Position numbers and translations under genes: made by a program. DNA of 61,864 nucleotides, filler included, from Hausera hauseri (lineage: Eukaryota): assembly GCA_046269625.1 (NCBI GenBank). It is 11 parts of 11 records of this genome, joined end to end, with 100 filler letters (N's around TTAATTAATTAA, not from the genome) between each part and the next. Parts side by side here need not be neighbours in the genome. Positions count along the whole stretch, not along the records: positions 35,792 to 41,768 come from JBJURY010159200.1; 10 more parts are not named here. One strand, 5' to 3'. This document shows, one piece after another, positions 6,294 to 61,864 of this stretch (position 1 is its first letter; every line of letters starts with the position of its first letter). The notes beneath the pieces are model-generated. The model saw only the letters and a list, made by a program, of their open reading frames with translations. It did not search any database and had not been told where the DNA came from.

Positions 6294-9200
6294 AATGCCA
6301 GCAAATGCCACGGCACATTCTGGCACAGGCAATATCGCTCAAACTTCTTGCCGTTTCGACACCTCTTGCAGCCTTTATGTTAAAAGCTAAAATGTTATTT
6401 GGAGACACCTCACACATAGACTTCCTTATCGATTCAGGAGCTGCCTTTTCACTTCTTTCTTTGTCCTTCGCTCCTGCATCTAACACAGTTTTCTCTCCTC
6501 CACTCTTTACTGCCTCTGGTCAACCCTTGAACATTGTAGGTATCACTAAACTGTTTTTCACATTCTCCAACCTTCCAAGGAAATTCTCCTGGAAATTTCG
6601 AATAGCCAATATCAGATCGCCCATAATTGGCTCCGATTTCCTGGCTGCACACGATTTGTTAGTCGACTGTAAGCATAAATGCCTCCTGCGTAGAACCTTG
6701 TTGCAAACACCAACAAATGCTCACCAAACGACCAGTCGGACACTTTGTTTTCCTCTGTTCACTCAAATGTCAATTTGACATGTTGCTCATCGACTGATAA
6801 CAACACGCTTAATAATTCATCAATGTTTTCAATTTCATCAAGTGAGAACAAATCAATCTTGAAACAATCGATTTAACCGAATATCATTAACAAAGTGTTC
6901 CGTGATTCTACATTAAATACAGCCACCGACTCTTCCACTAATATGCCCTCATCATTTTTATCGCTGGAATCCAATCTTAAATCCTTCATCAAAACTTCAT
7001 GCTTCCGTACTCTTAAGAAGGACATATATTTCAAGCCCTATTCTACAACTTATCACCACACAGTCACCGAACATCAAAGACCTATCAGACAAAAGGTAAG
7101 GTCACTGTCACCTCGCATACGAAAAGCCGCTAAATCAGAGTTCAATGAACTCAAAAAGGCTGGCATTATTCGAAGATCCAATTCACCATGGGTTTCACCG
7201 TTTCATGTAATAACAAAGAAAGATGGCACTTACAGACCATGTGGTGACTATCGTCAATTAAATAATCTAACAGTCCTAAATGCTTACCCTCTACCTTTCA
7301 TAAACGACATCCTGCACAGTCTTACCAACATTAACACGTACTGCACAATTGACTTGCATAAAGCATATCATCAAATTCCGGTTGCACATGATGATATTCC
7401 AAACACTGCTATTATTACTCCATTTAGTCTCTACGAATATATCTTTATGCCATTTGGTTTACGTAGTGCTTCTCAAACTTTCCAACGGCACATTGATACC
7501 GTACTTTCAGGCCTTGACTTCTCTCATCCATATATTGATGACATATTAGTTGCCTCTACGTCTGTCAAACAACATCAAGAACACCTTCATATTATCTTTC
7601 ACAAATTACATCATAGCAATTTGCAAGTTAACTTCTCCAAGTGTCATTTCTTTCAAAAAAGTGTAAATTTCCTAGGTCACATCGTCACTCCTCACGGCCA
7701 CTCTCCACAACCGGATCGACTACAATAATTGAAGAATATAACTCTATCAACGACTACCACGGACATGAGAAGCTTCTTAGGCACATTCCACTTTATCCAC
7801 AAATATGTACCTCAGTGTTCTGAGCTCACATCACCTTTTGCACATTTATCATCCGGGAAAAGAGGCAGTTGATCCACTAGACACCCGATTTAGTTACTAA
7901 GTTTGACCACTTACGCGATGGCCTAAAATCCGTCGAAATATTGTCCTATCAAAAGCCCAAAGCAGATCTTATACTTACCATCAATGCCTCGACCACAGCC
8001 ACCGGTGCGGTACTACACCAAATTTCCAACGGGGTTGATGAACCACTATAATTTTACTCTAGGAAGCTTACACAACCTGAAAGCTGCTACTCAACATTTG
8101 ACCGTGAGTTACTCGCCATAGTTCCGGCAGTAAAACATTTAAACATCTACATCTTACTTGTCCATTTGTGATTCAAACTGATCACAAGCCTCTCCTGCAC
8201 ATCATGTCGATAAAACAGCCATCACCGAGGCGAGAGAGACATATATCATACCTGTTCACGTTCAGTTTTGTTTTGGAATACATCTCAGGCACAGATAATT
8301 TGGTAGCAGATTTTCTATCGAGGTCGGTTGGCTCCATCACTGTTGAGCCGATTTTTTCATCCGAAGTTTTGAAGGCAAATCTACCGTCTGCTGACTTCCT
8401 TAGTTCTTTCAAATCCTTCGAGATTATTGATGGCATTGCTTATGTAACGTCGAATACCGGTAATAAAAAGATCATTCTAACACCACCTTTACAAAAGCCT
8501 GCTTTCGTTCATACTCACTCACTTCATCATCCGAGTTCAAAAGCAACCTTTCGCCTGCTTCAACGTAATGTAGTATGGCCATCAATGCGCAAAGATGTAC
8601 AGGGCTGGATTAAAGAATGCATAACCTGTCAAAAATACAAAATCAACAAACACCTCAAACCCCTGCTGTACCATTTTTCCTGCACATCACGTTTCCATAC
8701 GGTTCATCTTGATCTAGTTGGTCCTTTACCTTCAGACAACGGATATCAACATATACTTATCATGATGGATCGTGCTTCTCGCTGACCTGAAGCCGTTTTT
8801 TTTCGTTCAAAGAACACTTCAGTTGCCGACGCTTTTATTAAAATCTGAATCAGTCGCTTTGGTTCACCACGTCACATAATAACGTATTAAGGTCCACAAT
8901 TTGAGTCGGACCTTTTCAAATCACTTGTCAAGCGTTTGGGAATATCTCATTTCTATACAACTCCATATCATCCTCAAGCAAATGGCTTCCTGGAAAGGTT
9001 CCATAAAACAATCAAAGTTTTCTTAAAAATCTTGGCTGACACTCATCGCAATTGGACGTCCATTCTACCATTTGTTCTACTAGGTTGGCGCAACACACCC
9101 TCAACCACTACCGGTTGTGCTCCAGCCGAAGCACTCTTCGGGATTCCAATTCGGACCTTGTTTGAACTTTCTGATCTCTACGACAAACCCACAGACGAAA

Positions 9201-9500
9201 ACATTCGTGTAGCACAATTTCAATTCGTCGAGGTCAGCTCAGACTTATTCTGTCGCCTCTTTAACAACAATAAATCCTACATTCCGAAGGATTTATATTC
9301 CGCCAAGTTTGTGTAATTGAAGGATCAATCGCCTTCAGGCTTTAGACCTTAATATTTTGGTCCGTACAAACTGCTAAATCTTTCATCTCACATAGCTACC
9401 GTTTTACACCAAGATAAACCTTATAACGCCCACATTTCGAATCTGAAGCCAGCTTTCTTTATTGATGACAATCCGAATGCCAATGCTGCCACCAATTCAA
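6294..9500 (+). pseudogene. pol: pol (PR-RT-RH-IN) of gypsy copy A
   Basis: ORFs 6305-6778, 6895-7728, 8168-8785 and 8936-9316 are broken by stops and frameshifts. Confidence 0.93.
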
Positions 9501-19972: not shown

Positions 19973-20715
19973 ATGCAGTACAGTTTGAACCTTGATCAAA
20001 ATTTAATCGAAACCGTTCGAAAACAATTAGCTGAAAAGGAAAAGAAAGATAAATTACGTTCTTTCTATTACGACGAATTATGTCGAATTGTTTCAGCTTT
20101 GAATATCGAGTTTGTTCATTTATTGTTGAAATGTGTTCCATTATATTAATTTAGTAATTTCGATGGTGCATTTTCCCCAACCAGTTTACAGAATTTATCG
20201 AATGACCTTTGCGACGGCCAGGTGTTTGAAATCATAAAAGGTCTTCGAGAAGAAAAAAACCAATATTTGAAGTTGCAAAGTCTCAGAAATGAACATTCTA
20301 GTTGTGAAAATTATATTCTATTGGAAATAATACAGGATGTTTAGAGAAAATCCAAACACTTATTCACGCCCAACGAGAAGAATTGTTGACAATTAGAGAT
20401 CGTGGAATTTGGGAGAATTCCAAAGCTCGTCAGCAAACTGAACGAAAAGTAATCAATATCTTTTTCAAAATATTCATATTGACGTTCGTTGAGATGCTAG
20501 AAAAGCTACATGCCGAAGAAATGCGTAAGTTACAAATGAAAATTATTCTCGCATTGGATGAAAAGGTTCTCGAACAACAGAAAGCCCTTTTGTTGGCAGG
20601 ATTGAATCAATTTTCCATAACAAGTGATTCGGAAAAAGTCAAAATGCAAATGAAATTGTTGGATATTCTAATTCAACTTAGTTTAAAAGATCCAAAAGAT
20701 GTTGTTAGTTGTTAA
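19973..20715 (+). CDS. DGCR6: DGCR6/gonadal (gdl) family protein, spliced
   Basis: Removing GT-AG introns 20110-20154, 20301-20344 and 20449-20493 gives ..LQNLSNDLCDGQVFEIIKGLRE..LRNEH..KIILALDEKVLEQQKALLLAGLNQFSITSDSEKVKMQMKLLDILIQLS, matching DGCR6 motifs (DGTVFEIVQGL; KIVLELDRKVADQQ..LQMNLL). The start codon is uncertain. Confidence 0.8.
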
Positions 20716-24619: not shown

Positions 24620-27600
24620 TTCAATGAAGTCGGGGTATCTTGACTGCACTCCTAGTGCAACTCGATACCGGTGCGACAGGGATTTGCTTTCGTATTGTCG
24701 TCCGTTCCGTTTCCGGAAGTACGGGCGTTGGGGTAATGTGTGTTTCAATTTGGACCGGTGTTGGGTCATATGCTACGGTAGTGTCCATGTTGAATGGATC
24801 AATTTTCTCATAGTTTTCTCGAAGCTTGTTTACTTCTGACATGTTGGGTGCGTCTCGTTGGATAGGACCTTCCGTATTGGAATCATGATAGCCGAACGCG
24901 GGTTTTACATTAGACAAGTGTAATATATGTTCGTCATCGTCGCGTAATATTTTGGCGTTGGGCTCAGTGATTTCTATGAGCTTGTAGGGGCCCGTGTCTT
25001 TGTTGTCTTTTAAGCCAGACAAAGGATGCATCTTGTAGGTTCTTGGGCATGATTGGCTTTTTGTGATTGTTGTAGAATGCAGGGTTCGTGTCTATTGACA
25101 GGAATTGCTCACGAGCTTTGTTGACAGCAGGAATGGAAGTTACTTCCTCGTTGCTCACCAGATCTTGCGGGAATGTGAGGTGGGCACCAAATAATAGTTG
25201 TGCTGGAGAGGCATCAGTGCTAGTATTGGGCGTGTTTCTTCACCATAATAGCGCAATGGGTAATGCATCCAGCCAGTTCTTGTTATCGTGGCATGGGATT
25301 CGTAAGGATGATTTGAGAGTACGATGATATCGTTCAATCAAGCAATTCTCCTGCGGGTGATAGGGTGATGTGTATAAGTGCTTTGGACCAAGCGATTTGA
25401 TTAATTGTTTAAACATGGCTGATTTAAATTGGGTACCTTGATCTGTTATAATGTTTTTAGGTACTCCAAACCGAGAAATTTATGTATTTAGCAACACAGC
25501 CACAACGCTTTGCGTTGTTATTTGGCGGATTGGAATGGCTTCGGGCCATCTTTTTTTCCGGTTGAGAATGGTTAGGATGTGCTGATATTTGCTACATTCG
25601 GGAAGTGGTCCTACTATGTCCATGTGGATGGTTTCAAACCGTGAGCCAGTAGGATAATGTAGGATTGGTTGTTGTATAATCTTGTTAATTTTATACTGTT
25701 GGCAAAGTAAACATTCTTTTGTCCACTGCTTTATGTCGCTTAGCATGCGAGGCCAACAAACTCTGTTACTTAATAGGCGAGCTGTGGCTTGGTGTGTGAA
25801 TGGTGTCAAGCGCCTGTTTCCGTAGGTTTTCTGCCAGAATTGGGCGTGGACAACCATTGAGGATAGTGTTGTAGTGTATTCTATCTTTTGTGTCGACTGT
25901 TTTGACGAACGTAACATCATCTTCATGTGGAGGGTTCGATCGTAGAACCTCTTCCGTGAAAATTGGGTCAAAGGATATTGTCGATATCCAAGTTCTGGAA
26001 AAGAAATCAGCAACTGTTATCTTTTCCAGTTATGTGTTCTATCTGAAATAAGAATTCCGACAGAAATGAGATGTGTCGTTCTCGACGAGATGATGGGTTT
26101 TTAATACTCATCATGTGTATGAGTGGTTTGTAATCCGTGCAAATTGTGAATACATTTCATTCGAGGAAATGTCTCAAGTGTTTGACACTGAGAATTATGG
26201 CTAGTAATTCTTGGTCGAACGTTGAGTAGCTTTGCTTAGCTGAACTGAATTTGTGGGAAAAGAATTCAATGGGAGCATTTTTTCCATCTCTTGACTGGGA
26301 AAGGATGGCGCCTGCAGCGATGGTGGATGCATCTGTTGTTAAGATGAACCTTGCACCTCGTTTAGGATAGTGTAGTGTAGGTATGTGAAGAAGCGCCGTT
26401 TTTGCATTGGCAAATACCTGTTAAGCTTCATCTCTCCAATTTATCTGGGATTTCTTGGGTCCTTGGCTTAGAGCAGATAGAGATAACAGGATTTCCGAGC
26501 AGTGCGGAATGTAGCGATGGCAGAAATTGATCGTGCCAAGGAAGCTGCGAAGTTTAGTCACTGTGGATGGCTTCGGTATTTGTTTGATGGTCTTTAGTCG
26601 CTTAGGAAGAGGACTGTGGCCATGTGGTGTTAACCGAAGTCCGCGAAATATGGCCTCAGTTTTAAAGAATGAACATTTGTTTATGTTCACCTGTAGGTTG
26701 TTTTCATTCAACCTATGAAACACATGTTCGAGGTGTATTTTGTGAGTCGCTTCATCGGGTGATGCAATTAATATGTCATCTATATATGGGATTACATAAG
26801 CCTTTTCGATGAGGACTTGGTCTATGTGGCATTGGAATGTTGGACTTGCATTCCTTAAGCCGAAAGGCACGCGTAGATACTCGAACAAACCAAAAGGCGT
26901 TATTACGGCCGTTTTTGGAATGTCTTTAGTAGCCACTTGGATCAGATGGTATGCCCTTTCCAGATCGATTGTGCTGAAGATTGCGGCACCATGCAGGTGA
27001 TACAATTTGTCGGTTACCAACGGTTTTGGGTATGAATCGTGGATAGTGACGATATTTAACATTCTGTAGTCACCACAAGGCCGGTATGATCCGTCCTTTT
27101 TGTGAACCATGTGCAATATTGATGCCCACGGTGATGTGGAGCGGTGTATGATGCCTGTTTTTTCCAGGTGTCGGAATTCGGCTTCCGCGGCTGCTGTATT
27201 GACAGGGTCAAGCTCCCTCCGGGGTTGCCGAATCGATCGATCACATGATGTGACGAGAAAGTGTGATGTTTTCACCTCTTTCTGTGTTGGTTGTGTTGAG
27301 CGTTTCAACTAGTTAGGGTATTACGCTTGGAGCAATGGTGCGATATCAATGGGATTTGCGATTTTTATACTTGTGACTGCGTTTATAGTTAGTGTGAATG
27401 CGGGTGGAGGTAATAGATTGCTCCCGTTAGTGAGTTTTTGATTTCGGCAATCAATTCTGAGATCGTAGTGATCTAGGAAGTCAAAACCAAGGATTGGTTA
27501 CATGACATCGGCCAATATGAATGACCAAGCGTATGGTCGGCCTTGTAGATAAAATTGCAGGTACAGTGTACCTGTGGTTGATATTCGCGTGCCATTGGCA

Positions 27601-29180
27601 GCTTTGAGCGTTGCATGCGAGACGAGCGTAGGTCTAGCGTATGCGCTAGGTATCAGCGATAAAGCTTCACCAGTGTCGATTAGAAAATCGAGTTGTTTTG
27701 AGATATCAGAGTGTAGTGGCTCCGCCTCGAGAGTGAAAATAGCATTGAAAATGCGTTCGCTATTTGTACACGGCAGTTGTGGTGATTGAGTTTCCAGTCG
27801 ACGTGCCTTTGGTCGTCTGGGCCTATTTAGTTTTTTGATGACTTGTGAAATTTGCAGCCGGCTCGACAGATTTTTGCATCTTGATAGAAATGATTGTGAT
27901 AAGTGCAAGTGTCTTGCATTTTTATATTTGCGGGTGGCTTGTCGAATTGACAACCATGGTAACATTTGTAGGCGGATTTGCCAAATCGTGTATGGAAATG
28001 GCAAATTTTGGAAAATTTGCCTTTCTTTCTCTTGGATGATTGGCGCCGAGATGCCGGTTTGTCTCTGGCTAGCGGATTCTTGTGCGTTACGAGTGCCTGC
28101 AGTGCGGCAATAATTGTGTCCAGCTAACTTTTCTGGGTCGCTGTGACGGAGTTGATGTTTTCCGTCAGTGCGGATTCTTCGGTGCCTTTAGTGCTCTCAT
28201 ATTTTGTCGGCTTTTGATGCCATATCGTACAATGTCGTGTCGGGCGGTAATAGCACAAGGGCCGCTTGAATTTGGTTTGGCAAACTACTCAGGAAGTAGC
28301 GCCGTAGTATGTGCTGGTTACTGTGGAGGTCCAACTCAGCATTGCTCAAGTCTGAGCGTAAATTTTGAAGCAGAGCAGAAGGTTTTATATTCCCTGTCTG
28401 TCGCTTGGTAAAAACCAGATTGAATTGGTCTTGTTGGGATGGCAGATATGCTTTGTATATGGCTGCTTTGATTTTGTCAAACGGCTTTTCATCCGACAGT
28501 AACGTGTCCAGATCCGTTATTGCTGCAAACGTTGTTGGCTGTAGGTATTGTATTAATTTTAAGGCCTTGTTTAGTTGGCACGTGATGTTGTATTGAATAG
28601 CCCATGTTTCGAACACGAACCACTTCAATGGAGTTCTGTCCGAACCTATGAAGAAGGTGGAACACGCTAATTTGGGAGGTTTGGCCTGTGCTGATGATGC
28701 AGTTTCGGCTTTTTTGTCGGGTGTAATCGTGTCATTTTCTCATTTCATTTTAGGTGTTGCGAGCAGTGTCTCATTGTGTGTTTGGAAATAGTCCGAAATG
28801 GGATTATTCCATGGCCTCAAGATGTTTGCATTATGTGAGAAATAGTGGTCCGGATAGGAGCTCGCGAGTTGTTGTGGCATCGCCTTCACTGACATAGTAG
28901 ACGAGAAACGATATGCTGTCGTGTTGTGTAGGCCACGCACAAGAAGCTGGATTTCTCGCGGTGTCGTCGTTTTACCGGATTTGTGCGTCGAGTTAGTGTT
29001 ATCATTGTGCGTGTTAGTGCTAGTATAGTTTAGCACTTGTTCAGAATCGCTCATTGTGATTTTCTTGTTGGCGGTCTATGGTTAGCGGGTATTTTGTCAT
29101 CACGTTTAGTGATGTGGGTATTTGCGGTCGGATTGTTTTCGACGGCATTAATGAGTGTATTTACCGGATTAATTTCCATG
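24620..29180 (-). mobile_element. Ty3/gypsy LTR retrotransposon copy B (decayed) with UBL-Gag
   Basis: Gag (NIKPSALLQNL..LRRYFLSSLP), two CxxH..C..C knuckles, protease FLIDTGEALS, RT YRPCGDYR..YIDDIL, RNase H, integrase HMDIVGPLP. Confidence 0.95.
28737..28952 (-). other. Ubiquitin-like domain in frame with Gag (copy B)
   Basis: IQLLVRGLHNTTAYRFSSTMSVKAM..DHYFSHNANILRPWNNPISDYFQTHNETLLATPKMK*E. The single TGA at 28740-28742 is followed in frame by Gag (ORF 28197-28628). Confidence 0.65.
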
Positions 29181-30894: not shown

Positions 30895-31524
30895 GCAATG
30901 ATGATGAAATTATTCAAGTTAGTGACGCAAATTTAGTTAGTGACACAATTGTGCAGCTGGATGGGGAAAGTTATCAGGTTATTACCGATGATAGTGGCCA
31001 AACGTATTTGGCTCCCGTTAGTCAGACAAATGTTTCATCGAATATTGCCGTTTCTCAAAACCTTGATAGCAATGGAATAACATATCGTTGTCCATCTTGT
31101 CCGCAGTCGTATCAAAACGCTAATGCGTTCACGAAACATATGCGTGAAAAGCATTTCGTCAATGTCTACACTTGTCGTCAGTGTGAGCCATTCCATGAAA
31201 CACTGGGTCAATTATTTTTACATGCACGACGAACTCATGTCGATCCAAAAAAACCGAAAAAGAATCCGGGAAATTTCAAATTCTATTGTCCTGGTTGTAA
31301 TTATATGACGAATAATGGCGGAACAATGGAACATCACAGGCAGGCCCATACGGATGTGAAACCGTTTTCTTGTGATATCTGTGGAAAACATTTTGCTCAG
31401 AAAGCCAACATGAAAACTCAAAAATCGTCACATTCATAAAGATCGAATTTCCCGTTGTGAAACGTGTGGGAAAGCGTTTAATTCGTACGATATTTATTTT
31501 ACACATTTGCGAACGAGAGAACAT
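30895..31524 (+). pseudogene. Multi-C2H2 zinc-finger protein (frameshifted)
   Basis: CPSC..HMREKH, CRQC..HARRTH, CPGC..HRQAH-TDVKPFS-CDICGKHF, then after a 1-nt shift near 31437, CETCGKAFNSYDIYFTHLRTREH. Confidence 0.8.
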
Positions 31525-33944
31525 GAATTATGGGAAATATTTAGTTATGGCCAATCTTCAATGAATATTTCTATTGAGGAATCAATGAGAAGCCAAGAGA
31601 ATTCTAAAATTTCCCGTCTTCCGGCACCAGATATATGTTCAAATGTTATATTTGGTGTTATTCGATCATGTTGGGCAGATCAGCCGTCATCCATACCGTC
31701 GTTCAACGATATATCAAATCACTTAGAAGGACCGCAACCTGAAGAGCTTGTTGCGTTATGTGATGGACCGGATAACATTCCTTGTCATCGAACTGATGAT
31801 ACTAACGAACACAGTGATGGGTTTTATTCGCCTTTAGGCAAAATGCCGATATTGCGTTATAATAAAGATGACACTGTGATTATTTTAGATAGGCATATGA
31901 GTCAGTATAAAGACTTTTGGAGAGGATGTTTATTGAATAGCGACTCTGGATTGTTCAAATGGGAAAATATGCGTATATTTAGTAGAAATCAAAGCTCTAA
32001 TAATAGTCTTCAGGAAAAGTCAAAAACTTTAACAAATTGCTACGGTCCCTTCCATCTACAAACAATTCTAACCGAACGAAAAGTGTTGAAGATGCATTTT
32101 CAAAACTGCGCATAAGCAGACAAGAATCAGATCGTAAAGCAAAACCCAGTAGACTATCTGCGGATATGATAAGTCCCCCAATCGGTGATTTTCGGCATGT
32201 TGGTTATGTCGGTTGTAACGGTGAGGCGTTCGGTGATGTTACACCCTTATACACCATTATTGCTCAACAGAATATAAAATCCGGTGTTTTATCAATAAAT
32301 TCGAAATTAGATTCATCAACGTGCTTATCAGAAACTGGTAGTATCAGATCTTCGTCAACTTTGAATACAGCCGGTGATGATACCCCACCTTATGCAACAA
32401 TAGATAATGAACCATGGAAATCGCAATTGAATTCTTTAGAAAAATGCAACAAATTTTCGAAATCTGCTTATAAAGACGATAATTTGTTTATTTCACTACC
32501 ATTGCCACCGGTACGGAGTAATAGTTCAGATGATGATAAATGCATATCGAAATCACTTGATGATGTCATGTCAACTCAGTTTAATACTTGCAATAGTGAT
32601 TTTTCTTTGTTTGATGAACTTTTCCAAGCATGGGATTCTCAATCATTTAAATTGCATTCCTTTGATTCAGTTTCAGTGACAAAAGATTCGTTACCAATCT
32701 GTGAAAAACAGTCGAACATCGAAAAACGTTCAAAGCATTCAATCCTAGGCAATCCATACGCACACAATGAATATACACCAGCATCAAAGATATCATTAGA
32801 TTTTATAACTAGTTCTTTCAATAACAGTAATGCCTCCTTGTACGTCTCATCATCCTCTAGCGATACTCACGTTTCACAAGCATCGAACATTCGCAGTTCT
32901 ACATTTACATGTCAGTCTCCGACAACGGTTACAAAAATAACAAAACCGATTACGACTCCGACAAAATCCACCGGTTTTCTTAGTAAATTCAAATCGTTAG
33001 GCACAAATAAAACACCGAAAATTAAAGAAGACAAAAAATCCGAATCTCCAATCTATGCAAAAACCACTAAGTCGAACAAAACCAAGAAGCAAACTGATCA
33101 GTCAAATGCCAAGAAAAATAGTATCAGCAGTCCAGTCCTCATATCAGCTCCAATAATTACCGCAGAATCTGTTAATAATGAAGATTGCTTTCTCGATTGT
33201 TCCTCTGAAGATTCTAGTCTTCAACCGAGTCCTCGAGATTCATTAATATGCTTAACAACGGTGTCATATAATCCTTCCTTGTTGCAAAGTGACAACAGCA
33301 TGTATTACAGCAGACAGAACAGCAATATGACATGTGGTTCCAGAGACAAAAATAGTGATTCAGCAACAACTGTACCTCCTGCATTACCTTTTGCATCTTT
33401 GACGTCAGTTGCAAGTACAAATGTGCTTCAGGGTGGTGCTGCTTTGAGAGCTCTTAGAAAAGGTGATGGAGTGTTTAGAGCACCATCTACTGTCAATGTA
33501 ATGGGGCGTAAAAGGTCTTCGACTAGTGGCCAGAATGACCAAAATTTACTGCAAGGCACCTCGTCAAGGAATCGTTTGCCACTATTTCCAACAGCCTTCA
33601 GAGGCGTTTGATTGCAGTCGTCAACTGTGGATCGCAGATTATCTCAGCTAAGAGTAAATCACGGTAGTGAACAGTTAGAACCTGTTTTAGATACATTTAA
33701 TCGGCTTATGGCATTAGCTGACAAGACAATCGGCATTGAATCAAAAAAGCAAGTTAAATTGGAGTCATCGAGCGGTCTTGGTTGTGGCGTGGGAGTTTGG
33801 CGCAAAGACGAAACAATTTTGCGAGATGAAAAAAATCTCAGTGTTGTCGAAACACCAAAGGATGATGTGCAGCTCCATTCTCCAAAACTGGCAAATCTGA
33901 ACGAAACGTATTTGAAATACTTGTCCAATTATGGTGAATATTAG
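31525..33944 (+). pseudogene. TNK2: ACK-family non-receptor tyrosine kinase, C-terminal part (kinase end-SH3-CRIB-low complexity tail)
   Basis: LWEIFSYG..RLPAPDICS..SCWADQPSSIPSF (kinase subdomains IX-XI), SH3-like LRYNKDDTVIILD..FWRG..GLF, CRIB MISPPIGDFRHVGYVG..FGDV. This domain order is diagnostic of the ACK family. Frameshift near 32040 and in-frame TGA at 33609-33611. Confidence 0.78.
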
Positions 33945-35691: not shown

Positions 35692-35957
35692 NNNNNNNNN
35701 NNNNNNNNNNNNNNNNNNNNNNNNNNNNNNNNNNNTTAATTAATTAANNNNNNNNNNNNNNNNNNNNNNNNNNNNNNNNNNNNNNNNNNNNTCGTTCAAC
35801 TTTAAGTCCATGTTTAATTGACTTAAAGCTTGTCAAGTTTCGCAACATTTTTACTCCATAGCTACTTCACATGGTAACTGTACCTGGATGTGGTCAACAA
35901 CACCGGATCATTCAAGGAAATATGTACGGTCGTTTTCAGATAATGCATATCATACTT

Positions 35958-36426
35958 TCATAAACGTCGCGTCGGTAAAAATGTCAGTGTTTGATATGTG
36001 GGCTTTAATTGTCGTTTTTGTATTCCATTAGTCATTCGCGCCTGTCGCTTTAATGTAGGCTCTACTAATTGTTTGACAGGTTCTATTCCTGGTTCAATAC
36101 AGTTGACATTAGAATTGTTGTCACCAAGCACTCGTAACAAATCGGAACTCTCGTGATCATCATCACCATTGAGTATTATCGCTCTATCTTCGTCTGACAT
36201 GCGTTTACCAGAAATAATTCTCCCTTACCGTTTTAATATCGGTTTTACGAATTCCTGGACAGATTTCGGTTCTAGACAATTGACATTGTCCTTCTTGTAA
36301 CCAAACAGCCATGACCAATCTGTACTTTCGTCATTGTCAGAAGTATTATTGAGCAGAATCGTTTTGTCGTCGTTTTCCATCGTATTAATGTCTGAAAGAA
36401 TATGAGAATGATATTTATAGTCCATT
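35958..36426 (-). pseudogene. Polinton cargo protein with an internal ~60-aa tandem repeat
   Basis: MENDDKTILLN..NVNCLEP..VKPILKR*GRIISG and MSDEDRAIILN..NVNCIEP..VEPTLKRQARMTNG are in the same frame, separated by one TAA (probably from CAA). Confidence 0.55.
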
Positions 36427-36439
36427 GGCCAGAGTATAT

Positions 36440-36904
36440 TACTTTGATTTAGTGAAACATTAATGTGGTGTTTAATTTGATTAACAGTCGTCTCATAGTT
36501 GATTGACGGAATTCCCAATACGACAATTTTTCCTCTGCTAAACAAATTGGCACAAAGCGGGCGGAATAGTGTTAGTCGCAGTGCAGGAAACAGTTCGGGC
36601 TCATAGATGCATTGGGTAACCATTAATAATTTGTGCAGATCAATTAATGGTGGTGGTGGTAGTGAGAAATCTAAGTCAGTCGTTACCGTTATTGATTGAA
36701 TTTGGTCAATGACAATTTCGAATGGTAGATGTCATTTGTGACTGGTTTGCGACAACCCATAATACAACACTTTCCCGATGGAAATATGATGCGTGTAATA
36801 TCTAGTGGACATTTGTGGACATACTGCCTTGGTTTCCATTAATTAAATGGCAATGCATTAATACATTCGGTAACATATCCGCTGTAGTTGATATTGGCTA
36901 TCAT
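36440..36904 (-). pseudogene. Divergent TATA-binding-protein (TBP)-like gene
   Basis: Repeat 1: MIANINYSG..RIIFPSGKCCIMGCRK. Repeat 2: IQSITVTTDLDF..IDLHKL..CIYEPELFPALRLTLFRPLCANLFSRGKIVVLG, against canonical TBP YEPELFPGLIYRM..LIFVSGKIVLTG. One stop and one frameshift. Confidence 0.8.
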
Positions 36905-36960
36905 GATTGATCGAAACAGTGCTTATGCGGCACCTATTTATATATGTGATTATAAACAAA
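36905..36960. promoter_or_regulatory. Putative bidirectional promoter between the TBP-like gene and the ATPase
   Basis: 56 bp between divergent ATGs. TATATAAATAG on the minus strand (about 36934-36944) and TATAAA on the plus strand (36951-36956). Confidence 0.45.
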
Positions 36961-37599
36961 ATGTATGAGAAATGCATCACCAACGACATGAAGCTGCAGA
37001 ATAGTGACATTTTCCAGATTGTGGGCCCAGGTGGAAGTGGCAAAACACACTTTCTTTGAAAATTGCTGCAGAACCACCATGACATATTCCAAGCGCCGCT
37101 GTTCAATCACATTTACTGGCATCAGGGCGGTAGTGATTATGGGGAGTCCAGTTTGACATATCAAGCATTTTGTAAACTGAAATCGATAACGGTAATTGAT
37201 TGGTTTGATGAAAACTGGTCTGTACAATTAAGCAACGCTGACGTTATTGTTAATGACAATTTATTTCCAGAAGCAACAAAACAAACTGAATTCAAAAACC
37301 TGTTTGCGAAGATTGTACGGCACCGTGGCGTGGCAATTATTTTCATTACGCAAAATATGTTCCATCAGGGTGGACAGCATCGAACAAGAAATTTAAATGT
37401 ACGCTATTTGATTTTGTTCAAAAATTTCCGTGATCAGACTAGCATTGATTATGCTGCACGACAAGCATTTTCCCACAATCGAGCCTACTTGATAGAAGCA
37501 TATTATGATGCTACGAACAAACCGCATGGATATCTGTTTATTGACTTTATACAACAGTGTCCCGATGACATGCGTATACGAAAATACATTTTCAATTAG
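36961..37599 (+). pseudogene. A32-like/FtsK-HerA genome packaging ATPase (Polinton)
   Basis: Walker A IVGPGGSGKT, decayed Walker B VIVNDNL, RHRGVAIIFITQNMF..NLNVRYLILFKNFRD..KPHGYLFIDF. One in-frame TGA at 37057-37059. Confidence 0.9.
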
Positions 37600-37796
37600 A
37601 GAGGTGTATGTGTATATAAACAAATTCGAAAATCGACGATGATGAAAATGAAGAATTTCCGAAAAACGATTGTTAAACCTAAACCTACCAAACGGATGTC
37701 CAGCAAGAAAAGTGTATCAAAACGAACCGCTACAGTCAAGCGATAAATTAATTCTGTGCTTCGAACAACAACAACTAGACGCAAATTACCGTCAAA

Positions 37797-38186
37797 GTGG
37801 CAACGGTTAAAAACAACTACGTCTCATCAGCTTCAGTACATCCAAAAATGCGATTCAAACTTAGACAGTTATACTTTATTGCTTTGCTTAAGGCACCTAT
37901 GACACATAAGCGAAACATGCTTCGATCATTCCCGAGGTTTGTAGTAGACGATTTGGTGGAAATTTTATATAATATTGTTGTGGGTCACGTTGATATTGGT
38001 AGTGGAAAGCGGAATTTACTAATGTATCAAAAACGACTCATTGGCCTCACCAACACTTGTAGTAAACGGCTCAAGCGAGAGGTCATGTACCAGCAAGATG
38101 GCGGATTCCTTGGTGCAATTCTATCGTTTCTCACGTCATTACTGGATGGTCTCACCGGTACTGAAGCAGCACAGTATAAACAATGA
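37797..38186 (+). CDS. Conserved Polinton small protein with a QxGG|F amphipathic C-terminus (putative core/membrane-active virion protein)
   Basis: LVEILYNIVVGHVDI..QQDGGFLGAILSFLTSLL; GG|F resembles an adenain-type maturation site. Confidence 0.65.
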   Translation: MATVKNNYVSSASVHPKMRFKLRQLYFIALLKAPMTHKRNMLRSFPRFVVDDLVEILYNIVVGHVDIGSGKRNLLMYQKRLIGLTNTCSKRLKREVMYQQDGGFLGAILSFLTSLLDGLTGTEAAQYKQ

Positions 38187-38284
38187 CGGTGATCATATGG
38201 TAATTTGCTATATAGGTGCATGGTTTTTATCTTTTTGTCTCATTTTACCGAATCTTTCATTTACATTTCGTTAAAATTGTTGTA

Positions 38285-57790: not shown

Positions 57791-60700
57791 NNNNNNNNNN
57801 NNNNNNNNNNNNNNNNNNNNNNNNNNNNNNNNNNTTAATTAATTAANNNNNNNNNNNNNNNNNNNNNNNNNNNNNNNNNNNNNNNNNNNNAATTCCCTAT
57901 ATGTACTCCAAACTATCAGTCCAAACACAAAACTAGATCGCAAATTGTAACCAATTTAATCCCAGAGTATATGATCCTAAACATTGACGACTGATCGGTG
58001 ATCCCAATAAAACTATGACTTTATATGATCAACCCAATATTATAGACTATGACTGTGTATATTATTGTGATAATTAATGGACCTTGTATATAATCGTCTT
58101 ATTTTCATATTAATGTTAAACCCATGATGGGTGTCTCTGCCACACTTTTTTGTGTATACGAATTGTTACCAAAAGCGGCGAAATAATTAATCAAATAATT
58201 AACATAACTTAAAGATTTAAGCAATGACCATACAAACATACTTGCTTTAGAACTACAAAGAATAGAACATTAACCAGGTAACAGAACGATTACCCAACCT
58301 ACCACTACAAACAGCTTATAGGTTTCGTCATAAAATCCCAGAACTGTGTTCATTAAGTATGCCTATAGAAAATCAATTATTTTATTTCTCTATGGAAGCC
58401 GAGCATGGTAACTGTCAATTATTCTGGCACAATGTTTATCTAAAATGCCAGAATTATTTTAATCTATCTACAGAAACCAGAGTTATAATAAACACAATAC
58501 TTGTCCAAGCTGTCAGAATTATCAGAACAAATTCAAAATTCAATTACAATAAACGAATTCCATAATAGAAACACTCGTCTGAAATCAAGGAAGCAAATAG
58601 AAAAATATATACAATAATACCAAAATCCGAATCGCTCAAGTGGTAATCAAATTTCCTAAATAGATAATCAAATTTCCAAATAAACAATCAGGTTTCAAAT
58701 AAACCATGAACAGTATAAGACGCACTCAGTAAGACGAAAAACAAAACATTTTTACCGAAATAAAAATCTTAATTTTACATTGAGAAGAATCTTCACTGGA
58801 ATACAGATCCTTGGGTAGGTTGCATTTCTTATCAAAGGATTAAGGATTGATATTTTGTTAGAAAACAATTACAGAGCCAATTGAACAAAATAAGAGTAGT
58901 ACAAGATCCAAATTCGAGCAATTCATATCGTCAATACCCGATCTACCTAAATTTAATTAGTATTATTTACTCAGAGAAGGACTGAACGAAATGCTAATCA
59001 ATTAGGAGTACCAGAAGAACTTTCGGTTAAATTCCTTCTCTTATTATTTGAGAATTTTAACTTATAGTTGCCAAAAATTGATTAAAATATTACATTAAAG
59101 TAAAAGCCGCTGAAATTTTGTATATTCGATTTTTTATTATTAATAAATCTTCCCAATGGAATAAATTTGCTTAATGATGTGTATGTTCTACTGCACAGAT
59201 GATTTTGGTTGTTAGCATTTAATGAAAAGCAAATTCGTTTACCCAATGTAGTAGCGGTTCAGTCCAAGCAACTTAGCGTGTCGGTGAACCTGAACTACAA
59301 ACAGAGCCTGATCCCTACTGTATTGATGTATAGAGTAACAGTGAAATTTGGAACGAGGCATTTGGTAGCCAATACGAATAGCCAGTGATACAAAACAACC
59401 CATACTCAAAGGGATGAGTTATTTGCTGATCCCGTCCGGCCAAGGACGATGGATAAAGGATGTCTCCCGGATACATGTCAATTAACATATAATTTACAGG
59501 TCAGGGTGTTAAATTGACGGGTAGTCTAATGCGCATGAGATTCGATCTCTCAATAATAGCAGCAGTGGCGACCAATTATAGATTGACGAATAGGAAAGAG
59601 TGATAATGCATGTTAATTTTATATATTACTCAACGAATCGAGAATTAAAAACCCAATACATTTAATGTTCCAATAATAACATGATTCTGTTAAAAAACTT
59701 TAAATGCGCAATTGAAACCTTAATTCGTCTCGTATTTATGCTCATTCACGTCATGCCAGGAGGAAAATTATAAACATCCCCATCCATTAACTTTGTTTAT
59801 TTAACTGGTTTCGTGGTGTGCGAGTGAATTGTGGCGATCGTAGAATTACGCTCTCTGTAGTCGCATGACGTGGTAAGGGAGCTTAGGTGGCATCAATCTT
59901 ACACCGTGGAATTGTTGTAAATTGCGTGATCCATCTTAATGGGATATTAAAATTGCATCTTTCGTTTATTAAAAACATTTAGTTACTCTGAACCTAAATT
60001 CCATCTATAATAAAGTTAAAAATCTTCATGTTGCTGACATTAAACGAGTTTCGAAATTGGATAGTCACATACAGAGAAATTCAGTCTGTTTAATTAATCA
60101 TTAAAAATCTCCGACTTTATAATGTTCAACTCCATCCCAACAATAGTATTACTCGTCTAATCATGATCCGCGACGCTCAATAAACTAACCGTTGTTCTCC
60201 TAATTATCACCCTTATAGTCTGAGGAATTGGAATATAACGGTATCCCAATTACATGCAGTAGATGGTTGAAGACAACATTCCACAACAGTCGATTCATTG
60301 GAATGAAATGTGGTTATTTGAGGGTTGGGGCGTGTTCTTATTATGTGAACGCGAGAAGAGATGGACTACTACACCAATGGCGCAGTCTGGCACCGACCAC
60401 CGAACCACCGGAACTCATCCTTCAGGACATCACTCACTAAATTAAAAGAGACACGGTTTATATGTTGATAGTATGCCTCGAGAACTTCCAAACCATCAAA
60501 CATGATAGCTATCAACAAAATCATCGTCGCTGATCTTTTTTACCAACAGACTATATTTCACTGGTTTGATTTTGACCGTTTGCGTCAATGGCAATTAAAT
60601 AGCGTTGCGTAGATAATGTAAGTTGTATCCATTGTACAACCGGGAATTTTTGGGCAATTATTCGCTCCACCGTGGCCTTTTTGTGAGACTCACGGAACTG

Positions 60701-60876
60701 TCACCTGCTGAATTGTTTTCCAAAGACATTGTTTAAATAAGACAAATGTGAAATGAAATTGCATCCCTATTAATATCAAATTTGTTCATACCGGTTTGCT
60801 TTCATTGCAAACAATAGATATTTACTTCGTGAGTATTGTCTCATCAGATTGATACAAATTACCTCCACGTCCCAGT

Positions 60877-61864
60877 TCATTCGTAATAAATGTGTACAGT
60901 TTCCATTATAGAATATTTACATTCTTGACATTGGTGGGTTGCTTTGGTGAAACACATTTGACAAACAGCGAGATGGCCGCACATTAAGAATACCGTATCC
61001 ACTTTTTGTTGTTTACATAGTACATACATAAACTAACAGTCTCGTACTTTGTCCATTATTTTCTCTTTCAAGTTTTTTAATTCACAGCGTACCTTTTCAA
61101 CAGTATTAAAATAATTTGTATCATACAATCGTTGAATGTACATTTGATTTAACACAACAATTAAATTTTCTATAGAGCTGCAATTTGTTGTTGTTGCTCT
61201 TGTTGTCATCAATGCTATTGACGCAAAATCTTCTTTAAATCCAAAATCATCTGCTGCTCTTGCAATTAGATCACTATCAAGTACTTGCCAACATCGTACC
61301 AAGTCTGGAATTGATAGTCCATTAAAATTTTGCAATTGCTTCAATTAATTAACGATTTTCATGATGATTATTATGATTACTATAACTTACCCGTATTTGT
61401 AGTTTTCGAACTATTCAACTGATCAATACGGCGGACCTGATTTACATATATTTATTTGCATAAAATATAGTTAATACAAAGCGGTAGACATTTTTATAAG
61501 CACAATTCGGTCCATGATCACGATACTGACATATAATATTGTCAGGTACTATCTCCAGCGAGCTGTTCGATGTTGAATACGTCGTAATTCGTAACTCGGG
61601 AAAGTGTGAATGGAGTTGTGTAAACATTTGTCCGTTAATATAATCTTTAATGTAAAATATATTATTTTCAATGTGAACACGATCACAAATCTCCCCCATA
61701 ATACACGTCACACAGAAAATTGAATTGCCTTCATACCAATGAAATCCATGACGACGTCGAAAGAGAAATCCATTTGTACATTTCGTTTTTTCCGTCAGGT
61801 CATTCCACACAATGCCGGGCTTGAATACGTACACAAGCGGTTTGAAAATGTTACTGACGTCCAT
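60877..61864 (-). pseudogene. IAP-like gene (degenerate BIR-like region, UBA-like region, C-terminal RING)
   Basis: After the TAG at 61033-61035 the frame continues FMYVLCKQQKVDTVFLMCGHLAVCQMC..CQECKYSIMETVHIYYE* (IAP-type RING). Upstream ARAADDFGFKEDF..SIENLIVVL is UBA-like, and GFHWYEGNSIFCVTC..DHGPNCAY is BIR-like. Confidence 0.6.

Follow-up and report, generated by a model that had tools for sequence, protein, structure and literature searches.

A decayed Polinton fragment in Hausera hauseri carries a TBP-like pseudogene whose intact relatives may direct transcription of virion genes

Does a Polinton encode its own TATA-binding protein (TBP), and which promoters would such a protein serve? 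The question is raised by a stretch of 61,864 nucleotides from Hausera hauseri (assembly GCA_046269625.1), here called the window, in which a TBP-like gene and a packaging ATPase gene both lie on a single contig, positions 35792-41768. The stretch, 1-61864, consists of unrelated 4-7 kb contigs linked by N44-TTAATTAATTAA-N44 spacers, so neighbourhoods that span a spacer are meaningless. The contig is an internal fragment of a decayed Polinton/adintovirus in which nearly all genes are broken. It has the hallmark packaging ATPase, rve integrase and capsid genes, the capsid labels being based on weak Pfam matches and gene order. Judged by its sequence, the TBP-like gene of the window is a dead copy of a Polinton/adintovirus TBP-fold gene, unable to make protein, and its value lies in the family to which it belongs. 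With a probability of roughly 65%, the intact protein would be an early-made viral TBP that binds the box YATAAACR and recruits host TFIIB and RNA polymerase II (Pol II) to virion genes.

The gene in question is the following.

36414..36904, minus strand: TBP-like pseudogene, identified by a PF00352 match, the family profile and alignment to the intact relative P0003.

Its start ATG is at 36904, codon 22 (36839-36841) is an in-frame stop, and a single frameshift near 36732-36740 separates a shortened repeat 1 (~36734-36904) from a full repeat 2 (~36440-36731). The stop, the frameshift and the two TBP motifs of the initial annotation are all present on the minus strand in the 36440-36904 region, the motifs IFPSGKCCIMG and YEPELFPAL..NLFSRGKIVVLG being read in different frames. 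A short proline-run insertion lies inside repeat 2. Homology continues to ~36414, and the frame runs on past the point where P0003 stops. The second half of the gene matches PF00352 (E 1.2e-8, 35.1 bits, above the curated cut-off of 22.9); the first half by itself has no match in Pfam. The family profile described below matches both halves (E 3e-27 and 1e-16). Repeat 2 is 66% identical to P0003, an intact relative of 160 amino acids, and the window copy is 72% identical to an intact element-type relative.

The intact relatives have the TBP fold. The P0003 model is a TBP saddle (pLDDT 95; TM up to 0.71 against solved TBPs) with 44 PDB matches at E<=0.001, every one listed being TBP. Identity to solved TBPs is only ~19-28%, and profile alignment to ordinary TBPs with hhalign gives 99.7% over 160 columns. 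Four intact relatives score 57-64 bits against PF00352, the family with which the initial annotation had proposed a comparison. The lack of an N-terminal extension and of introns, also remarked on there, is shared by intact relatives of 145-160 amino acids. Repeat 2 of the P0003 model is complete. Repeat 1 keeps its four strands and, in the subgroup of the window, lacks helices H1 and H2, most of which a distant group retains. In that subgroup N27 and F74 are 37 residues apart against 47 in TBP, and G83 and Q116 are 20 apart against 33. Because the intact relatives share it, the asymmetry of repeat 1 is a family trait and not only decay.

The family is large and tied to Polinton genes. Of 251 candidates in a search with P0003, 240 proteins (clusters at 90% identity) pass E<=0.001; most have 145-160 amino acids, and none of the 120 family matches listed is of NCBI or UniRef origin. 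The same holds for 22 family proteins looked up by cluster, whose records carry no host names, and the Atlas has only clusters with a TBP domain and taxa that say little. A profile of 106 members finds 743 proteins at E<=1e-10 in 1.84 billion representatives, some ordinary TBPs included. The related loci are the best 80 of 173 confirmed metagenome matches; gene-family profiles were built from the same 80 loci and named via Pfam, which confirms pPolB, INT (integrase), protease, PLA2 and KilA-N. A Polinton core gene is present in 40 of the 80 loci, 37 have only shared accessory genes, and three short loci have nothing; among loci of at least 5 kb the share with core genes is 13/15. In IMG/VR, P0003 finds no family member, the family alignment finds one ordinary large-virus TBP, and no relatives of the ATPase or major capsid protein (MCP) are present; a phage collection has no ATPase match. 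At 80% or more, 23,784 contigs of one public run and 1,226 of a second match the contig itself, and the matches reach all 30 bins, the TBP gene among them. These counts therefore indicate high copy number and not independent spread, as the first run may be the source organism.

In the family the median ratio of nonsynonymous to synonymous substitution (dN/dS) is 0.20, with a range of 0.05-0.42, over 70 non-independent pairs from 78 open reading frames (ORFs) filtered at identity >=60% and dS 0.05-1.5. By this measure the family is under purifying selection; its members diverge to 25-30% identity. In an IQ-TREE phylogeny of 53 rows out of 323 collected, the 29 family rows form one clade with support of 99/98 and a stem of 0.69, apart from the eukaryotic (5), viral or unassigned (9) and archaeal (10) TBPs. 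The tree is without animal TBP and TRF2/TLF, and the intended row L072 is missing. Two long-branch large-virus TBPs adjoin the clade without firm support. One long-branch viral TBP that fell inside the family in a first FastTree analysis was placed outside it by IQ-TREE. The family, its linkage to core genes and its separate clade bear out the proposal of an element-encoded TBP-like factor. Its deeper origin may lie in a host or in a large virus. The gene occurs in two element groups: loci L061-L081 (PLA2/KilA-N) keep most of H1 and H2, and loci L002-L060, the group of the window, have lost them. This suggests a stepwise stripping of the repeat-1 helices across the two groups. Separately, the bacterial metagenome-assembled contigs L088, L089, L116 and L091 encode TBPs of eukaryote or large-virus type, probably through binning contamination.

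The DNA-facing residues are rewritten in a consistent way. Conservation was counted in groups of 164, 19 and 104 sequences; residues and their roles are given in Arabidopsis numbering, mapped on P0341. The intercalating F74, F148 and F165 are kept in 94-100%, and the fourth, F57, is replaced by a Pro conserved in >=90%, so the conservation of the intercalating Phe residues, which the initial annotation had asked about, holds for three positions and fails at one. P149 is kept as in cellular TBP, and the TFIIB-contact residues E144 and E146 are kept in 88-100%. On the DNA face, V80 becomes R in 94-100%, T82 becomes M in 97-100% and L163 becomes N in 99-100%, accompanied by N117 to S/T (97-99%), V119 to T/S (98-99%) and V29 to N (57-98%). 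I152 is mostly R; I152 and L163 correspond to two of the three residues changed in TBPm3, a yeast mutant of altered specificity. In the Asn/Thr pairs N27/T82 and N117/T173 only N27 is retained, T173 being swapped family-wide. The canonical traits of four Phe residues and a hydrophobic DNA face are thus absent from the family, and the acidic TFIIB stirrup residues are present. The window copy departs from the family at one invariant DNA-face position, as expected for a pseudogene. A MAFFT column that gave Phe at F57 in most near relatives was rejected as a misregister caused by the helix deletion, on the evidence of hhalign.

The promoter regions fall into two classes, for which the window provides these examples.

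36935..36944, minus strand: canonical TATA box (TATATAAATA), 38-40 nt before the TBP-like start; likely a host-type early promoter.
36951..36958, plus strand: YATAAACR box (TATAAACA), 37 nt before the ATPase start at 36988; likely a late promoter.
37615..37622, plus strand: second YATAAACR box, preceding a basic ORF and the pVII-like gene.
38175..38182, plus strand: third YATAAACR box, preceding the integrase region.

The first two lie back-to-back on opposite strands of the spacer between the TBP-like gene and the ATPase. The first in-frame ATG of the ATPase is at 36961, which accounts for the 56 bp originally given for this spacer; homologues begin at the second ATG, 36988, and support a spacer of 83 bp instead. 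Across the whole window YATAAAC is not enriched (31 against 27.8 expected), and only the placement of the box is therefore informative.

In the related loci, inspection of upstream regions by eye brought out YATAAAC ahead of ATPases, and placement was then measured in non-redundant 100-nt upstream regions compared with dinucleotide shuffles. YATAAACR precedes 22/23 ATPase genes (1.0 in shuffles), 9/10 MCP (0.3), 14/17 pVII-like (0.7), 11/14 INT (0.5) and 10/12 PLA2 (0.4). It also stands ahead of pX (5/6), penton-like (4/7 and 5/6), protease (4/6) and exonuclease-like genes (19/24). The box is strand-specific, its reverse complement being found 0 times in each of these gene classes. From box to start the distance is most often 32-38 nt, and in 97% an A or G follows the box core. 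An unbiased count has ATAAAC as the top 6-mer (53/59 against 4.9). In 126 late upstream regions TATAAAC occurs 74 times and CATAAAC 29 times, against 6 for TATAAAA and 9 for TATAAAT; C at position 7 is nearly fixed. In ten long loci, 65/102 box sites lie <=100 nt from a gene start, where 7-12% of the sequence lies. The box falls within upstream coding sequence at 42/131 sites and overlaps the upstream stop at 25/131. That the box is nothing more than a stop codon or a poly(A) signal can be set aside on this last count and because AATAAAC occurs in just 5/126 regions. The sequence that follows the late box shows no clear initiator.

The TBP gene itself is arranged differently. YATAAACR precedes it in 1/52 cases and canonical TATA in 24/52 (5.7 in shuffles); most of 23 cases also have an initiator-like TCA ~30 nt on from where the TATA begins. 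CCAAT is weakly enriched there (12/52 against 8.0). Canonical TATA is also used by the small families F9 (4/6) and F12 (6/8).

The fold, the rewritten face and the two promoter classes can be joined in one mechanism. Host TFIID would transcribe the viral TBP gene and the SSB-like (single-stranded DNA-binding) genes early. The viral TBP would then bind YATAAACR, which would be a weak site for host TBP; its remodelled repeat 1 would recognise the C fixed at position 7, and once bound it would recruit host TFIIB and Pol II to the virion genes. In solved TBP-DNA complexes repeat 1 touches the 3' half of the box, and the Arg, Met, Asn and Pro swaps of repeat 1 coincide with that half, where the box departs from TATA. 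The helices of repeat 1 carry surfaces used by TAF1, Mot1, Brf1 and TFIIA; their loss in the subgroup of the window would free the viral TBP from control by TAF1, Mot1 and TFIIA. The two-class promoter pattern lends indirect support to the suggestion in the initial annotation that such a factor may redirect Pol II to late or structural promoters. Its second suggestion, that a diverged repeat 1 hints at altered specificity, gains from a remodelling that is family-wide and goes beyond decay.

Several observations weigh against this mechanism. Canonical TATA is absent within 100 nt of 28/52 TBP genes. The classes are not clean, YATAAACR preceding pPolB in 1/3, SSB-like genes in 2/17 and a zinc-finger gene in 3/8, and "early" and "late" are assigned from gene type only. 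The link between box and protein is co-occurrence inside elements all chosen for carrying the TBP gene. One intercalating Phe is lost and repeat 1 is two helices short in the subgroup of the window, whereas KSHV (Kaposi's sarcoma-associated herpesvirus) ORF24 needs all four Phe. The divergence of TBP tracks that of the ATPase overall (rho 0.63, 0/2000) and within the PLA2 group (rho 0.91), but in the group of the window the correlation is not significant (rho 0.30, 205/2000). Finally, 1QN3 is listed as wild-type TBP with a C(-25) variant box, and since wild-type TBP binds this position-7 C variant, host TBP could read TATAAAC.

This last point leads to the strongest alternative, in itself unlikely, in which YATAAACR is read by host TBP, while the viral TBP acts as a decoy or repressor that ties up TFIIB or occupies host or early TATA boxes, thereby shifting Pol II to the element. 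The tolerance of host TBP indicated by the 1QN3 title, the loss of one intercalating Phe, and the retention of the TFIIB-contact glutamates with repeat-1 partner surfaces deleted would all suit a decoy. Yet a decoy has no need of a new set of DNA-facing residues held fixed across a family this diverged. The doubly non-standard CATAAAC in 29/126 late regions, and the near absence of the box from the promoter of the TBP gene (1/52), also speak against it.

Another improbable explanation takes YATAAACR as a general Polinton late signal read by another element protein or by a helper virus, with the TBP-like gene as an unrelated accessory. Virophages use helper promoters, the box counts come from TBP-carrying elements only, and the position of the TBP gene varies between loci. 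In addition, the adintovirus gene sets, in the parts of PMC8502044 available, are described without TBP as a core gene. Against this stands the simpler pairing of a TATA-like box, at a TATA-like distance, with a TBP whose DNA face is re-tooled, the repeat-1 changes lying on the side taken to contact the 3' half of the box.

A role outside transcription, in which the protein binds or bends DNA for terminal replication, packaging or the choice of integration site, is very improbable. It would fit the SSB-like gene found in 24/80 loci, mostly adjoining the TBP gene, and the ATPase that often lies close downstream; it leaves the conserved TFIIB-contact glutamates and the strand-specific boxes at gene starts (65/102 sites within 100 nt) unaccounted for. 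A recent host TBP or TRF retrocopy at this one locus, the outcome that the initial annotation named as its refutation, can be dismissed, and for canonical TBP is refuted, since an intronless, broken gene within an animal genome is here much closer to an element-type relative than to solved TBPs (72% against ~19-28%), belongs to its own clade (in a tree without TRF2/TLF) under purifying selection, and recurs in the 23,784 matching contigs of one run.

For the viral TBP as reader of YATAAACR, the wider proposal is that many animal Polintons run their own early-to-late switch, in which a single minimal viral TBP, made by way of host TBP, alone retargets TFIIB and Pol II to the box; the balance tips slightly towards it. 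The factor and the box offer a direct way into the question whether animal Polintons are true viruses that pass through a regulated lytic cycle: virion genes carry the box, and the presence of the factor would foretell when capsids are produced. If the proposal is true, no smaller viral promoter-specificity factor of TBP type would be known; the protein would be a TBP of naturally altered specificity that has shed the regulatory helices of repeat 1, and its existence would be a sign of a true lytic programme. With its rewritten DNA face, stripped N-terminal lobe and intact TFIIB stirrup, the family also lets nature test which surfaces of TBP are required for Pol II initiation. Should the pairing of small factor and box prove specific, it could be used as an orthogonal promoter system.

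The remaining genes of the contig are as follows.

35826..36011, minus strand: SSB-like gene (family F3), broken, downstream of the TBP gene; family profile.
36988..37599, plus strand: packaging ATPase (FtsK/A32 type), broken; 56-63% to the nearest relative group, family profile E 4e-80.
37857..38186, plus strand: pVII/pX-like core protein with a GGF protease-site motif; relatives, with a weak PF05829 match (E 0.011) in one.
38282..39270, plus strand: rve integrase, broken; PF00665 E 1.4e-5 and relatives.
39316..41520, plus strand: penton-like (minor capsid) gene or genes, broken; family F11, labelled from gene order only.
41522..41767, plus strand: pX-like start running into the N-terminal part of MCP, ending with the contig; relatives.

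The ATPase has an in-frame stop at 37057-37059. At 41522-41767 the pX-like start abuts MCP, and the matched parts are ~400 nt apart in relatives, which marks an internal deletion; the MCP family has a weak PF16903 match (E 0.007) in a relative. The 6-kb contig ends within MCP and lacks pPolB, protease and termini; pPolB occurs in 8/80 and the cysteine protease in 13/80 related loci. The head-to-head arrangement with the ATPase, noted in the initial annotation, is not general: of 27 loci that have both genes, 24 place the ATPase downstream on the same strand, 2 are divergent and 1 has it upstream; the separations run from 15 bp to 5.7 kb. With only 2/27 loci divergent, the layout in the window is incidental.

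The model of an SSB-like relative resembles T7 gp2.5/Enc34 SSB with a probability of 0.97-0.99 but an E of ~0.1. In L007, L012, L013, L016, L018 and L027 this gene looks spliced: F9 ends in a GT-like donor, and F3 begins after an AT-rich stretch with an AG acceptor. In the window, short ORFs at 36225-36380 and 35958-36200 on the minus strand may be upstream exons of the SSB-like gene. In L013, L017, L023, L033 and L040 a small ORF with a Met-Gly start (possible myristoylation) and a Cys-Cys end overlaps the start of the integrase gene, and the box 53-96 nt ahead of integrase probably serves this ORF first.

Another contig of the window (57891-61864) holds a second Polinton-type fragment. On its minus strand lie genes of an exonuclease-like type (family F1, 61472-61861) and an SSB-like type (family F3, 60517-60681), together with a RING-like Cys/His stretch (60877-61032), and it has no TBP match. 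Host genes on further contigs are VCP/p97 (48490-50589), a kinase fragment with a weak PBD match (31414-33611) and DGCR6 (20308-20715). The closest matches of VCP/p97 are animal p97, and the host genes point to an animal. Broken reverse transcriptase and integrase genes of the long-terminal-repeat retrotransposon type are present on three more contigs (6877-9316, 25480-28739 and 44858-46038).

The novelty of a TBP in this clade, raised in the initial annotation, is qualified by one published label. "TBP" appears in the Fig. 5 legend of Starrett 2021 (PMC8502044) for a MELD virus with an adintovirus-like PolB, in the section on non-animal datasets. It stands there as a legend entry, which does not give the carrier element or its kinship to the Polinton family; sections 7, 8 and 10 of the paper contain no family, residue or promoter analysis of TBP. 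The figure itself, Fig. S1 or the GenBank maps of that study may show the Polinton family. The preprint 10.1101/697771, in its accessible part, carries the same label, and the accessible parts of PMC12220804 and PMC10675990 are not about Polinton TBPs. A full-text search, with subscription journals mostly outside it, found no description of the TBP-like family or of the YATAAACR box. No printed account was thus found of animal Polintons that have a minimal TBP and a promoter box to go with it, while herpesvirus TBP late switches are already known.

Compared with known systems, the Polinton protein shares with cellular TBP (PF00352) the two-repeat saddle and the residues F74, F148, F165, P149, E144 and E146. 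It differs in the change of F57 to Pro, the polar swaps on the DNA face, the shortened repeat 1 and the absence of an N-terminal domain. Virus-encoded TBP folds are also matched in structure, with 22 BFVD matches at E<=0.001. The TBPs of Nucleocytoviricota and mirusviruses share the fold, but those retrieved mostly keep the canonical DNA-face residues and fall outside the family clade. The elements are like Polintons, Mavericks and adintoviruses in their ATPase, rve integrase, GGF core proteins, penton-like and MCP genes, with pPolB and an adenain-type protease in relatives, and go beyond these elements as described in having their own TBP-like gene and a two-class promoter layout.

The nearest parallel is the herpesvirus viral TBP (vTBP), which likewise combines a TBP fold and polar DNA face with a non-standard TATA-like box on late structural genes; the account of KSHV ORF24 in PMC12529657, in the parts available, describes a reader of TATTWAA late promoters in which four Phe are required and the TFIIB glutamates are absent. 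In that system, as far as the same parts go, early genes keep host-type promoters, and the Polintons resemble it in having a box that is nearly absent before their own TBP gene. According to the same account, ORF24 is large, comprises several domains, makes direct contact with Pol II and needs five other viral factors (PMC12529657), whereas the Polinton TBP has 145-185 amino acids, three Phe and both glutamates, is without the Pol II-binding N-terminal domain, and has no partner set seen. BcRF1- and UL87-type models match it weakly (E 0.005 or worse). The Polinton TBP is an analogue of the herpes-type vTBP system and not a member of it.
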